This document shows, piece after piece, positions 20,994 to 30,804 of a DNA stretch of 32,000 nucleotides. Below the pieces are notes generated by a model. The model was not told where the DNA came from and made no database searches. It was given only the letters and a program-made list of their open reading frames with translations. How positions within the stretch are numbered: the first letter of the stretch is position 1; each line of letters begins with the position of its first letter. A program made the translations under genes and the position numbers. The stretch is taken from NCBI GenBank assembly GCA_964589775.1, contig CAZPUN010000020.1, positions 1 to 32,000 of the forward strand, written 5' to 3'. This stretch comes from an uncultured archaeon (GTDB lineage Archaea > Asgardarchaeota > Thorarchaeia > Thorarchaeales > CAZPUN01).

Positions 20994-22859
20994 ATGAAAA
21001 AATATAAACTAATAAACTTGGGATTGATTTCCCTTCTCATGTTTAGTTCAATTTTTATAAGCCTACAGCCACAAATCGCAAATCAATCTATGTATAAACC
21101 AAATTTACAAAAAACTCTGTCAGATAGTGTTGTAATAAAAAGGGGCCCAGCAATAAATGCATTAACAAATGATTCCGTAGTTATTGCATGGCGAACTAAT
21201 GCCAATACATCAAGTATTGTTCAATATGGAACTACATCTGCTCTTGGAAATAGTGTTCAAAATAGCACGCTTACTACATTACATATCGTAGAATTAAGCG
21301 GCTTATCGCCTGGAACAACATATTATTATCGTGTGGGTGATGGAACATACTGGAGCGAAAATTATACATTTACAACTGATAGTGGCTCAGATGAATTTAC
21401 ATTTGCCGTCCTTGGAGATTCAAGAGGCGATGTTTCAAATAAGCCGCCTGAAGTATTTTCAACATTAATTAATTTAATAAAAAATGATAATCCAGCTCTG
21501 ACAATAATGACTGGAGATCATATACTCTCATTGACACCCTCTGAAACCCCAGAAACAACGTGGGAATATGTAACAAATGTAACAGATATCCTACAGCATT
21601 CGGTTCCGATATATGTTGCAATAGGAAACCATGATGACCCTGAAGGAACAAGCTTTGTTGAAACATGGAATTATGGTTGTGGGAACCAAAGATACTTCTC
21701 AATAAATTATGGAAATGCACATTTTGTGATTCTTGATAGCGAACAGAAAGATTATGCAGGTACAATCGCACCAGCCGAATTACAATGGCTTAAGAATGAT
21801 CTGAAACAAAATACCGCGGAGCACACATTTGTTTTTGTGCATAGACCGATGTATCCTCAATCATCACATGTAGGGGATTCATTAAATACGAATGCAACAC
21901 TACGCGATCTACTTCATGATCTATTCGTAGAACATTACGTGGATGCAGTTTTCGTTGCTCATGAGCATAACTATGTTAGAGAAACTTTTGATGGTCTTCT
22001 TCAAATAATTTCTGGAGGGGCTGGCGCACCATTAGTATCAATATACACACCTTCGCCTGAATATCCGGATTATGTGTATATGAAAACGTACCATTATATG
22101 AGAGTTCATGTTAATGGAACAAAAGTATCTATCGAAGCAGTAGATGACAATGGAAACGTTTTCGATAGAATCAACCTAAATTCAACACATAATCCAAAAC
22201 CAGTTATTCATGAAGTATCATGGACACCTACTACGCCTAAAACAGATGAGAAAATAATATTCAAAGTAAATGCAACTGATGATACACAGATAACATCAAT
22301 AAAAGTATATTACAAAGAAAGTACACAAAGCACTTGGACCATATTAGACACAACTTATTCTGATGGCATATATCAGACAGCCGAGATCGGCCCAATTAGT
22401 ACAGAAGGTGAATACAAAGTTTTTGCTCAAGCCTTTGATAATTCAGGAAATGCAATAAATAGCTCATTAAAAGATCTGGTTATTGATGGAACTGCACCAC
22501 AAGTATCCATTACGAATCCACATGATGGTGATACAATTTCTGCAACTACACTAACAATTTCAATTTCTGCAACAGATAACATAGCGATAGATCATGTAGA
22601 GGTTTATATTGATGGAAATCTTGTATTCACAGATAATACTGCACCATATACAAAAACTATTGACATTACTAACTTGGCTACTGGAACTCACAATATAACA
22701 GCAATAGCTTACGATAAAGCAGGAAATACTGCAAAAACAAGCATAACAATAAATATAGCTCCTGGCTTTGATGCTGCAGCCTTAGCACCTATAGGTATTG
22801 GAGCAGGAACAGTCGTTATCATCGTTTTACTTGTGATATTCATAAAAAAGAGAAAGTAG
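20994..22859 (+). CDS. Cell-surface purple-acid-phosphatase-like metallophosphoesterase (FN3 + calcineurin-like + Ig-like domains, C-terminal TM anchor)
   Basis: Signal peptide; FN3 (LSGLSPGTTYYYRVG); GDSR, TGD, GNHD, VH, AHEH; Big-like domains (AFDNSGN, AYDKAGN); PGF + TM + KKRK. Confidence 0.9.
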   Translation: MKKYKLINLGLISLLMFSSIFISLQPQIANQSMYKPNLQKTLSDSVVIKRGPAINALTNDSVVIAWRTNANTSSIVQYGTTSALGNSVQNSTLTTLHIVELSGLSPGTTYYYRVGDGTYWSENYTFTTDSGSDEFTFAVLGDSRGDVSNKPPEVFSTLINLIKNDNPALTIMTGDHILSLTPSETPETTWEYVTNVTDILQHSVPIYVAIGNHDDPEGTSFVETWNYGCGNQRYFSINYGNAHFVILDSEQKDYAGTIAPAELQWLKNDLKQNTAEHTFVFVHRPMYPQSSHVGDSLNTNATLRDLLHDLFVEHYVDAVFVAHEHNYVRETFDGLLQIISGGAGAPLVSIYTPSPEYPDYVYMKTYHYMRVHVNGTKVSIEAVDDNGNVFDRINLNSTHNPKPVIHEVSWTPTTPKTDEKIIFKVNATDDTQITSIKVYYKESTQSTWTILDTTYSDGIYQTAEIGPISTEGEYKVFAQAFDNSGNAINSSLKDLVIDGTAPQVSITNPHDGDTISATTLTISISATDNIAIDHVEVYIDGNLVFTDNTAPYTKTIDITNLATGTHNITAIAYDKAGNTAKTSITINIAPGFDAAALAPIGIGAGTVVIIVLLVIFIKKRK

Positions 22860-27682: not shown

Positions 27683-28687
27683 ATGCCTGAAAAAAGAAAA
27701 CTAATCTCCACCACATTAATTGCGTTAATGATTATTTCATTTGCCGCCCCCTTCATATTCACAAATGTCCAGGCAGCTGAGACAACCAACATAACAATTG
27801 TCATTGATGCTTCACATGGTGAAATTTCATCAAAGAGTGAAGCCTTGACAAATCAGCTTATTGGAAATCTTACTGCCAAAGGATATAATGTGATCGTTGC
27901 TAAAGGTGGCATAAACGCAACCGTATTAGAAAACGCCACTGCATTACTTGTTGGTGCAGTATATGGCGCTAACTTTACAAGCGCTGAAATTCTTGCAATT
28001 AAGAACTGGTACAATACCGGTAATAAATTCATCTGGGTAAACGGTGACAGTGATTATAGCGGAAATTACATTGTCAAGAACTCAAATGATATTTTGGCTG
28101 CAATTGGTGCCCACCTTAGAGTCGAACCAACATCAGTCGAAGACCCAGAATCCAACTGTGGTGCTGGATACAGAGTTGTTGCAAATGTAACAAACAACGA
28201 TCCAACTGTTGCACCTATTGTAAAAGACGTATCAAAAGTCTTGTTCCATGGTCCTTCAATCCTATATGGTATTAATGCAGATGGTGATCCTGTCGCATTA
28301 GAAAATACAACATTACCCAATGTATACTGGATCATGAAGACTTCACCTGCCGGTATTATTGTAGATCATGATCTTGTATCACCTGTAGCTCACACAGTAA
28401 ATCAAGAAGGCAGCTTTGTAATCTTTGCAGTTGAATTAGCTGCAGGACCCAAAGCAAACAATGTAGTTATGGTATCTGGTGCTGCAGGCTACGGTGACTA
28501 TGAACCAATGTTCTCAGACTTGTATCATGATGTAAATCTTACCGGTAGCGCATTAGTAAAGCAAGCAATTGACTACGGAGTTACAAAGTGCCAGCCTGCA
28601 ATGGGTATTGATCCAATGATCATTACCGCTGCAATTGGTGCTGTTGTAGTCGTTGTTATAATTGCGGCAGTATTAAAGAAGAAATAA
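27683..28687 (+). CDS. Secreted, C-terminally anchored protein with GldG/DUF4350 (GATase-like) domain
   Basis: Signal peptide (..VQA/AE), IVIDASHGE, FTSAEILAIKNW..GNK..WVNGDSDY, N.ILAAIG; C-terminal TM + KKK; many NxS/T sequons. Confidence 0.65.
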   Translation: MPEKRKLISTTLIALMIISFAAPFIFTNVQAAETTNITIVIDASHGEISSKSEALTNQLIGNLTAKGYNVIVAKGGINATVLENATALLVGAVYGANFTSAEILAIKNWYNTGNKFIWVNGDSDYSGNYIVKNSNDILAAIGAHLRVEPTSVEDPESNCGAGYRVVANVTNNDPTVAPIVKDVSKVLFHGPSILYGINADGDPVALENTTLPNVYWIMKTSPAGIIVDHDLVSPVAHTVNQEGSFVIFAVELAAGPKANNVVMVSGAAGYGDYEPMFSDLYHDVNLTGSALVKQAIDYGVTKCQPAMGIDPMIITAAIGAVVVVVIIAAVLKKK

Positions 28688-28797: not shown

Positions 28798-29856
28798 ATG
28801 ACCAACAGAAAAGTTTTGATTGCTAGCTTATTAATAATATTATTCATTGTATCGACGATACCAACAGATGCATACAGTAATAACAATGTAGTCCTTGATG
28901 TAGAGGGATATTTAAAAGCACCTGGAGTTGTACGATATAATGTAAATCTCACAGAATTAAATTCGAGTTTCTACTATAATATACATTTATATGTTCCACA
29001 AGGAGCAGATTTTGATTTATTTTTGAAAAATAATAGAACTGGAGAAGAAGTTGCTAGCTCATTTGATAAATATTGGTCTACAGACACATTAGGTAAAGAT
29101 GAAATAATAAACTATCGACCGAATACAAATGATACGTTTACAATTGAGATCTACGCATATGAACTTACAGATTCTGAAAATAATATAACATATTCCAATG
29201 AAGGAAACTATAGATTGGTTGTTTCTATCGAAAAGGCAACAACAATTGCAGATATAGTGACACCGTGGATATTACCAATTTTCACAATAATACTATGTAT
29301 CGTAGCAATCTATATTCTATATCCGCGTATAAATAAAATTATTTCAAAAGCAGAACTAAAACATCGAAAGACAAAAGAGCCAATTATTGATGACGTAAAT
29401 AGGTTTATAGAATCCATAGAACAAAATAAAGAAATAGCTCACGAGATTATATCTAAAATAATTAAAAATAAATTTCACCAAATTCAAATCGCAATAAAAC
29501 CAGATGACCTTTTTGTAAATATATATATTCAAATCAATAAGGATATGACTTGCGAAGTTCTAAACTCAGAAATCGATCAAAATTTTGATATTACTATAAG
29601 AGGCCTCAGAAAAGATATAGAAAAACTACTATCTGCCAAGTTTTCATCTAAAGAACTCAGAAATATTAATGACAAAATAACATTTGAAATTTCACATAAA
29701 AAGCAACTTTCAATCGTAGTATCAATATTACCTATACTCATAAAAGAAGCGAAAATGAAATCAATAGATGCCGCATTAGATCTTGCAAATGAGATAATTT
29801 CACAGATAATTACTAATGATGAAGATTCTGAAAATATAATAAATAAACTTGATTAA
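28798..29856 (+). CDS. Single-pass membrane protein: extracellular PPC-like beta domain + TM + cytoplasmic domain (possibly SCP2-like)
   Basis: Signal peptide, PQGADFDLFL...DEIINY...IEIYAY...GNYRL (PPC-like), TM near aa 157-175, soluble C-half. Confidence 0.7.
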   Translation: MTNRKVLIASLLIILFIVSTIPTDAYSNNNVVLDVEGYLKAPGVVRYNVNLTELNSSFYYNIHLYVPQGADFDLFLKNNRTGEEVASSFDKYWSTDTLGKDEIINYRPNTNDTFTIEIYAYELTDSENNITYSNEGNYRLVVSIEKATTIADIVTPWILPIFTIILCIVAIYILYPRINKIISKAELKHRKTKEPIIDDVNRFIESIEQNKEIAHEIISKIIKNKFHQIQIAIKPDDLFVNIYIQINKDMTCEVLNSEIDQNFDITIRGLRKDIEKLLSAKFSSKELRNINDKITFEISHKKQLSIVVSILPILIKEAKMKSIDAALDLANEIISQIITNDEDSENIINKLD

Positions 29857-29879
29857 ATTTGACTCTTTAAAATTACAAG

Positions 29880-29992
29880 AATTAGGTGAGCCGCCCCACA
29901 GCTCACCTTGCATTCCCGTTCTTAAAACTCGATTTGGCCCATCCAGAGAACAGGAACGCTATGCATCCCTCAGAGCCCACATACGGGAGTAA
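29880..29992 (-). ncRNA. Candidate structured non-coding RNA (unidentified family)
   Basis: 59/106 GC (about 56%) in very AT-rich flanks. A 13-bp stem (29959-29947 with 29922-29910) and a 10-bp stem (29908-29884) pair fully only on the minus strand, via G-U pairs. TATA-like TTTTAATA about 20-25 nt upstream. Confidence 0.6.
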
Positions 29993-30023
29993 CAGTATTG
30001 TATTTCATATTAAAATAATTAGC

Positions 30024-30044
30024 AAAATAGGCAACATTTGCCTA
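30024..30044 (-). terminator. Hairpin + T run downstream of alaX
   Basis: Minus strand TAGGCAA-ATG-TTGCCTA-TTTT. Confidence 0.4.
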
Positions 30045-30081
30045 AATATTATTTCAGAGTAAAAATAAAAAAATAAAAAGT

Positions 30082-30804
30082 TTAAGAAATCGTAAAATAA
30101 ATCCGTCTCTTTTTTGAACCCATATTTTTTTGTTTAACTATCTTAAAAGTCCCAATTTCGGAAAGATTACGAACATGAGTACCAGCACAAGATGCTGCAT
30201 CATAATCATCAATAATTACAATTCTAAATTCTTTCACGCTTTCAGGAACCATTTCAAGATATTGGGTTTGATATTTTCGCGCTTTTAGAAATTCTATTGC
30301 CTCTTGGCGTGCCATAAATTTTATTTCAACATCATATTTTTTTGAAAGGATTTCATTTATATTAGACTCAATATTAGAAATTTCATCATCAGACAGTTTT
30401 TCCATCGGATGAAAATCCGCATGAGATTTTGGAACATTGACTGATGAACTAATTGTTTGAGCAGAATATGTATTTTGCATATAACGGGAAAACACGTGTT
30501 GAAGCGTATGCATCTTCATAAGCATATATCGGCGATCCCAATCAATTTCTCCATGAACCATATCACCAACTGAAAATGAGACATCCCCATCGAAATAATG
30601 GCGTACTTCACCCGATTCTTTTGTTACTTTTGTAATATTTACCGTGGAATTTCCTTTTTTGATTATGCCATGATCGCATGCTTGCCCACCACCTCGAGGG
30701 TAAAAAGCAGAACGATCCAAAACCAAATAGTTTTCACCCACGTTTATTACTTTAGCATCAAATTCTTTAATGTAGTTGTCATGCATATGTAGAAGTTCGG
30801 TCAT
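30082..30804 (-). CDS. alaX: Free-standing alanyl-tRNA editing protein AlaX-M
   Basis: LDRSAFYPRGGGQACDHG, IDWDRRY.LMKMHTLQH (HxxxH), CAGTHV (CxxxH), 240 aa. Confidence 0.95.
   Translation of the reverse strand: MTELLHMHDNYIKEFDAKVINVGENYLVLDRSAFYPRGGGQACDHGIIKKGNSTVNITKVTKESGEVRHYFDGDVSFSVGDMVHGEIDWDRRYMLMKMHTLQHVFSRYMQNTYSAQTISSSVNVPKSHADFHPMEKLSDDEISNIESNINEILSKKYDVEIKFMARQEAIEFLKARKYQTQYLEMVPESVKEFRIVIIDDYDAASCAGTHVRNLSEIGTFKIVKQKNMGSKKRRIYFTIS

Follow-up and report, generated by a model that had tools for sequence, protein, structure and literature searches.

Positions 29880 to 29992 of the 32,000-nt stretch of DNA analyzed here (referred to as the window) form a GC-rich island between two genes, which raises the question of whether an RNA is encoded there and, if so, of what kind. 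The island had been described in an initial annotation of the sequence as about 56% GC; an island was indeed found, although its measured GC content was lower (52.2%, with 54.5% in a core at 29884 to 29984). The window as a whole contained 35.4% GC, and the flanks of the island contained 25.6% and 19.1%. Because the three remaining GC-rich stretches of the window all lay within open reading frames (ORFs), the island was the only noncoding one in the 32 kb, and it was delimited at 29869 to 29984 on the minus strand (52 to 54% GC versus 19 to 26% in the flanks).

The flanking genes were convergent, as previously claimed: an orphan ORF of 352 amino acids at 28798 to 29856 on the plus strand and alaX (PF01411 and PF07973) at 30082 to 30804 on the minus strand. 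Given this arrangement, with alaX on the minus strand, a minus-strand RNA would be codirectional with alaX and located downstream of it. The earlier statement that the element holds no ORF agreed with the comparison among relatives described below, in which no conserved ORF spanned the element, indels between lineages shifted the reading frame, and no frame was conserved. A small peptide gene was considered and rejected, as an AUG following GAGGG opened frames of 14 to 21 codons that differed among lineages while the nucleotides were conserved. The 352-amino-acid neighbor was also set aside as a partner of the RNA; it has no Pfam assignment, and searching the Atlas with it was uninformative.

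Folding of the element favored the minus strand. The minus-strand MFE was -47.9 kcal/mol (z = -3.43 relative to dinucleotide shuffles, with 1 of 200 shuffles equally good), compared with -30.7 kcal/mol on the plus strand (z = -2.17). The same preference was found in homologs, for example in L005, in which the sense strand had an MFE of -38.1 kcal/mol versus -24.5 kcal/mol for the antisense strand. The minus-strand stems proposed from the sequence, one of 13 bp with two G-U pairs and one of 10 bp with one G-U pair, were present as described (P2 and P3 below), and their wobble pairs were legal on the minus strand only.

The assembly that contains the window (2.16 Mb in 64 contigs, 35.2% GC, 97% complete) was the only species representative of its family in the set compared. 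Copy number had been proposed as a check on the element, and one copy was found in the 2.16-Mb genome, with no partial paralog. The 5S rRNA, signal recognition particle (SRP) RNA, and RNase P RNA of this genome were encoded on other contigs. The element was found downstream of alaX in six further contigs, which represent two additional lineages within the family, giving seven copies in total, and the AlaX proteins of these contigs were 78 to 85% identical to that of the window. Two of the contigs, L002 (Logan SRR21418560) and L003 (GCA_053994715.1), were reached through the 352-amino-acid neighbor, for which a search of 5.8 billion protein clusters yielded only two relatives (51 to 52% identity); both contigs were syntenic with the window, with the element between the 352-amino-acid gene and alaX. 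A search with alaX yielded L005, a 1.2-kb ENA contig (alaX 78% identical), and members of the alaX cluster yielded L063 (GCA_053940065.1), L064, and L065, all belonging to the L002 clade. Covariance models built on the first copies recovered all seven, and L005 was recovered at 55.8 bits (E = 2e-14) with a model that was blind to it. Other alaX homologs, at 50 to 58% identity, were labeled Thorarchaeota by their sources.

The three lineages thus available (the window, the L002 clade, and L005) were roughly equidistant from one another. Identity among them was 76 to 78% across the alaX coding sequence and 56% at its third codon positions, 45 to 63% in unconstrained spacers, 70 to 86% in the RNA core, and 77 to 90% in a block directly upstream of it. 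Conservation ended at the borders of the RNA and this upstream block, the latter being considered below as a promoter.

The conserved region was resolved into three hairpins and a tail, all on the minus strand. P1 (29960 to 29983) is a small, irregular 5′ hairpin on an invariant block, GGGCUC(UC)YGAGGGAUGC, whose 16 nt were the same in all copies except for the pyrimidine position (Y) and a 2-nt insert in L005 that lengthens the P1 stem. When the four distinct sequences were cut at the predicted transcription start, P2 and P3 appeared in the MFE structures of all four, and P1 appeared in those of three (the window, L002, and L005); covariation in P1 was too sparse to prove its pairing. P2 (29910 to 29959) is a stem of 13 bp, GCGUUCCUGUUCU/AGAACGGGAAUGC, including two G-U pairs, in which 29959 to 29947 pairs with 29922 to 29910 around an apical region of 24 nt. 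Within this region, an apical mini-stem, GAU/AUC, closes a heptaloop, GGGCCAA (29931 to 29943), and the 10-mer UGGGCCAAAU (29941 to 29932) was identical in all seven copies. The mini-stem was closed by G-C in the window and by C-G in L005, and the pair below was A-U or G-U (G-U in the L002 contig). P3 (29884 to 29908) is a 10-bp hairpin, AGGUGAGCUG-loop-CGGCUCACCU, with one U-G pair and the loop UGGGG in the window; both of its stem strands were unchanged in the seven copies, and the loop followed the form NNGGGG with two variable positions. The invariance of the P1 block, the apical loop, and P3 means that these parts yield no information on pairing; what they demonstrate is constraint at the level of sequence. 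A U-rich 3′ tail (29869 to 29883), with a T-run at 29872 to 29869, is the likely termination zone. The sequence of the tail was not conserved (52 to 63% identity), and T-runs followed P3 in every copy at varying distances.

Covariation, which had been proposed as a further check, was found in P2. The strands of this stem could be aligned without gaps between invariant anchors, making the comparison independent of any model. Overall, three to four double compensatory changes and three to four wobble-compatible changes maintained the pairing. Between the window and L005, pairs 4, 8, 9, and 10 were altered on both sides and remained paired (U-A to A-U, U-G to A-U, G-C to U-G, and U-A to C-G), pairs 3, 7, and 11 became or ceased to be wobbles through a change on one side, and one terminal pair was lost. 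In model-fitted alignments, 97 to 98% of the P2 cells were in standard pairs, compared with 35 to 50% when the partners were slid by one to three columns, and between 0 and 5 of 500 column shuffles attained the observed measures. As only three diverged lineages were represented, this support came mostly from one sequence, L005.

Two features initially attributed to the RNA were not borne out. The 5′ element CUCCCGUAUGUGGG was present in the window and missing from L005, the most divergent homolog, so a pseudoknot between UGGGG and UCCCG, which had been suggested on the basis of this element, is not a conserved feature. The corresponding 5′ hairpin, CCCR/UGGG, was retained in the window and in the L002 clade and was absent from L005. 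The element (CUCCC) probably lies upstream of, or at, the predicted start; in view of this position and of its loss in L005, the hairpin and the pseudoknot were excluded from the RNA.

The upstream block, by comparison, supported the earlier claim of a TATA-like element. Directly before the RNA, a nearly invariant block of about 28 nt had the form TTGCCTATTTTGCTA-NN-TATTTTAATAT; in the window, it reads TTGCCTATTTTGCTAATTATTTTAATAT (30007 to 30034, minus strand) and ends in the TATA-like box TTTTAATAT (30015 to 30007). The box was kept in relatives, with one substitution in the L063 clade (TTTTAGTAT). Identity across the block was 77 to 90% among the three lineages versus 45 to 63% for the adjacent spacers, and the block occurred once in the genome. 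Since the 5S rRNA of this genome begins 25 nt past its own TATA-like box, similar spacing was used to place the transcription start of the RNA at 29982 to 29985 (G29984 or A29982), 22 to 25 nt after the box, with an uncertainty of about 5 nt in either direction. The window, L002, and L005 all have a purine at such a distance, 1 to 6 nt before GGGCUC in each lineage. On these sequence features, we infer the start and end of the RNA and its independence from the alaX mRNA, and independent transcription is plausible.

Searches for known RNA classes were negative. No match was obtained anywhere in the window with Rfam 15 at gathering thresholds, and a search at E ≤ 10 of the 500 nt from 29700 to 30200 returned only four chance matches (12.6 to 22 bits versus thresholds of 50 to 176). 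ARAGORN predicted no tRNA in the window, and no RF00005 match fell on the locus in either the genome-wide search or the local search at E ≤ 10. The initial impression that the element resembles no known family, tRNA included, was therefore upheld by the Rfam comparison recommended at the time. Together with the presence of the element in two further lineages, the compensatory changes in P2, and the lack of a conserved ORF, these results support the proposal of a novel noncoding RNA. In the reading that we hold with moderate confidence, the locus is a single-copy, family-specific gene for a small noncoding RNA of about 100 to 115 nt, probably with its own TATA promoter, which folds into three hairpins and would act in trans through its invariant surfaces.

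The main rival to this reading assigns the element to the alaX transcript, either as a cis-acting 3′ segment (a stabilizer or terminator in the 3′ untranslated region [UTR]) or as a small RNA (sRNA) processed from that region. The position of the RNA, on the alaX strand and directly downstream of the gene in seven of seven copies, is compatible with such an origin. So is an upstream hairpin, P0 (TAGGCAA-ATG-TTGCCTA; 30028 to 30044, minus strand), a perfect 7-3-7 palindrome between the T-runs of alaX and the promoter block. The presence of a hairpin between alaX and the RNA had been noted initially, and P0 proved to be conserved in relatives, being kept in L002, L003, and L063; in L005 (TGGGTAA/TTGCCTA), two transitions produced G-U wobbles that are valid on the minus strand only, so that P0 stays paired on this strand. 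Two roles are conceivable for P0, either as the hairpin that ends the alaX mRNA or as an operator-like palindrome through which the RNA gene would be regulated. Against an origin in the alaX transcript, however, long T-runs, an archaeal termination signal, immediately follow the alaX stop codon, the conserved TATA block is at the right distance from the RNA, and in more distant Thorarchaeota alaX is present, the element is missing, and 64 nt separate alaX from the next gene. The alaX 3′-UTR explanation is considered unlikely on balance, though less so than the other alternatives.

If the element is instead a separate trans-acting RNA, its gene, immediately downstream of alaX, would probably have a TATA promoter of its own, and the RNA would present three adjacent hairpins, with P2 as a structural spacer in which selection acts on pairing and not on sequence. 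Its recognition surfaces are likely to be the P1 block GGGCUC..YGAGGGAUGC, the apical loop of P2 (UGGGCCAAAU), and the entire P3 hairpin, and the presumed partner of these invariant surfaces would be a protein or a second RNA. Contact with an RNA could be made by the exposed heptaloop and perhaps also by C/U-rich strands that resemble anti-Shine-Dalgarno (anti-SD) sequences, and P3 with the U-rich tail could shield the 3′ end and serve as a handle for a protein. The invariance of the P3 helix suits recognition by a protein better than it suits a simple base-pairing sRNA. When the whole genome was searched for complements of the 5′ block, the loop, and the 3′ strand of P3, no site exceeded chance expectation.

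The RNA was also compared with the translation signals of the host. The SD motifs GGAGG, AGGUG, and GGUGA were 10- to 16-fold enriched within the 20 nt that precede the start codons of 1,279 long ORFs, indicating that this Thorarchaeon leans heavily on SD-led initiation, and the 3′ end of its 16S rRNA (contig C23, about 22041 to 22100, plus strand) reads GGAUCACCUCCU. The 3′ strand of P3, GGCUCACCU, matched the 16S rRNA 3′ tail, GGAUCACCU, at eight of nine bases, a lead and not a result given that a rough post hoc estimate puts the probability of this match by chance near 0.04. The 5′ strand of P3 contains the SD motif of the organism, AGGUGA, and P1 contains the SD-like sequence GAGGG. That P3 mimics an SD/anti-SD duplex, and that the RNA belongs to a new translation-level or small-subunit-directed ribonucleoprotein, is a tentative idea with a rather small chance of being correct. 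Were it correct, the RNA would serve as a decoy, drawing off a factor that recognizes the 16S rRNA 3′ end, or as a switchable mask of ribosome-binding sites, and not as an ordinary mRNA-specific sRNA.

A pseudoknotted catalytic or ligand-binding RNA (a self-cleaving ribozyme or an orphan aptamer), in which the 5′ GGCUC pairs with GGGCC of the apical loop, is improbable. The 5-bp pairing was possible in all copies and appeared in the MFE structure of L005 (duplex energy, -8.8 kcal/mol), and more than half of the RNA was invariant in sequence, as are the cores of ribozymes and aptamers. Because GGCUC and GGGCC were both invariant, covariation is uninformative on whether they pair. At E ≤ 10, however, there was no match to models of hammerhead, twister, pistol, hatchet, or hepatitis delta virus (HDV) ribozymes or of riboswitches. 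The core motif of the hammerhead ribozyme is CUGANGA, which the CUGAGGG of the element (CCGAGGG in L002) does not fit. No gene follows on the strand of the RNA that could be the target of a riboswitch, which makes a role as leader or riboswitch unlikely.

Derivation from a disrupted, split, or degenerate tRNA gene, an explanation to which we give very little weight, would draw on the tRNA content of the genome. Only 30 RF00005 matches and 20 ARAGORN calls were obtained from this 97%-complete genome, which shows approximately 28 to 30 detectable tRNAs, many with odd introns; moreover, the loop GCCAAAU resembles a T-loop (UUCAAAU), and the 11-mer GGGCCAAAUCG also occurs in an insertion of a tRNA-Thr(GGU)-like gene. 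This derivation was largely refuted by the absence of an RF00005 match at the locus, even at E ≤ 10 over 500 nt, by the lack of a 3′ strand complementary to the 5′ GGGCUC, and by the covariation in P2, which contradicts threading of this stem as a D arm or an anticodon arm. Neither a cloverleaf nor a bulge-helix-bulge was found, and a 9-mer occurred 17 times in the genome, as expected by chance.

A modification guide RNA of the box C/D or H/ACA type is just as hard to credit, even though the GC-rich hairpins of this archaeal RNA and the CUGA found in both the window and L005 speak for it. Both types were rejected because their defining boxes are missing. The element has no C box (RUGAUGA), and CUGA is changed to CCGA in L002; P2 consists of 13 continuous base pairs without a pseudouridylation pocket or a K-turn; and the nucleotides between P2 and P3 are (C)AA, not ACA. 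The lone match of the snoRNA type at E ≤ 10, to SNOR75 (16.1 bits versus a gathering threshold of 50), was outside the element at 29798 to 29834 on the plus strand. Finally, a mobile-element end, miniature inverted-repeat transposable element (MITE), or attachment site, proposed solely as an alternative in the initial annotation, can be dismissed given the single copy, the same syntenic position in three lineages, the lack of a match in viral contigs, and the lack of an integrase or transposase among the neighbors scanned.

The small-RNA gene thus favored was not found outside one family-level lineage of Thorarchaeia in the genomes searched, to which it appears to be restricted. No homolog was detected by blastn in 40 relatives, by covariance model R1 in 86 genomes of the same order, or by covariance model R2 in 86 other genomes of the class Thorarchaeia and 150 sampled Asgard genomes. 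With laxer filters, R2 gave two weak matches in 38 relatives (21.5 and 17.9 bits), which were rejected as chance because they lacked the invariant loop and P3. In more distant Thorarchaeota, with alaX 56 to 58% identical, another gene was located 64 nt past alaX, and the RNA was not found there. Exact patterns likewise gave no match: that of P3 in species genomes, patterns in JGI metagenomes (two scans), and a pattern in viral contigs. A looser two-block pattern gave 54 matches in unrelated bacteria, about equal to or below the estimated chance number.

No known prokaryotes are more closely related to eukaryotes than the Asgard archaea, whose repertoire of noncoding RNAs is, to our knowledge, almost uncharted. 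A cleanly delimited and conserved Asgard RNA gene with covariation support is suitable for entry in family catalogues and would seed a new family of the Rfam type, and the combination of a covarying spacer helix with an invariant SD/anti-SD-like helix is an unusual pattern that offers a concrete hypothesis. The narrow range (one family-level lineage with three diverged species groups) limits the immediate impact.

Among RNAs recognized in a comparable way, the Hgc noncoding RNA genes of AT-rich archaeal genomes are said to have been detected by composition by Klein, Misulovin, and Eddy in 2002. The element is like them in being a noncoding GC island (52 to 54%) in AT-rich DNA (flanks of 19 to 26%). 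It differs in that Hgc families are represented in Rfam and none of them matches here. Most Hgc RNAs reportedly turned out to be H/ACA RNAs or members of other known classes, the boxes of which are missing from the element.

The element is best read as a new family within an established type of RNA, the archaeal intergenic structured sRNA; in common with such RNAs, it is noncoding (no conserved ORF) and has a conserved structure (P2 covaries). Documented examples in archaea, sRNA154 and sRNA41 of Methanosarcina mazei, are intergenic and mask ribosome-binding sites through conserved loops (PMC5867862). Like sRNA154, sRNA41, and sRNA162 of that species, the element is intergenic, stably folded, restricted to a genus or family, and equipped with a conserved loop, and it shares with them C/U-rich segments complementary to the ribosome-binding motif of the host (PMC5867862). 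It has no homology to these sRNAs in sequence or structure and, in contrast to them, no target above chance (PMC5867862); the whole P3 helix is invariant, and the anti-SD-like strand is locked within it.

A likeness to the selenocysteine insertion sequence (SECIS) elements of Asgard archaea was also considered. The eSECIS-like element described in this group has a GA_[G/A]A core under an upper stem of 7 to 15 bp, with unpaired A's on top, and lies 3′ of a selenoprotein gene (PMC11227280). The type II form is matched by the element in strand and distance (same strand, less than 600 nt after a gene) and in outline (an upper stem of 13 bp capped by a bulge and then by a mini-stem with a small loop at its apex), whereas P2 has neither the GA_[G/A]A quartet at its base nor a run of unpaired A's on top (PMC11227280). 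Furthermore, alaX does not encode a selenoprotein; no in-frame TGA interrupts its ORF, which is intact and full length.

Two minor observations were made in the course of this work. Of the tRNAs of this genome, 20 were identified by ARAGORN and 28 by RF00005 above threshold, several with insertions at noncanonical positions, and about one third of the full set may be hidden, disrupted, or missing from the assembly. On contig C13 (57850 to 57939, minus strand; L068, 151 to 240, minus strand), a tRNA-Thr(GGU)-like gene was missed by ARAGORN (RF00005, 48 bits) and carries an insertion of about 19 nt in the D arm; the insertion contains GGGCCAAAUCG, the same 11-mer as in the apical loop of the RNA, probably by chance. 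In addition, the orphan protein of 352 amino acids (28798 to 29856, plus strand) is adjacent to a second one of 334 amino acids (27683 to 28687, plus strand). The two proteins belong to no Pfam family and are mutually dissimilar, and the pair is situated beside a gene for a solute-binding protein, in an order conserved in L002.
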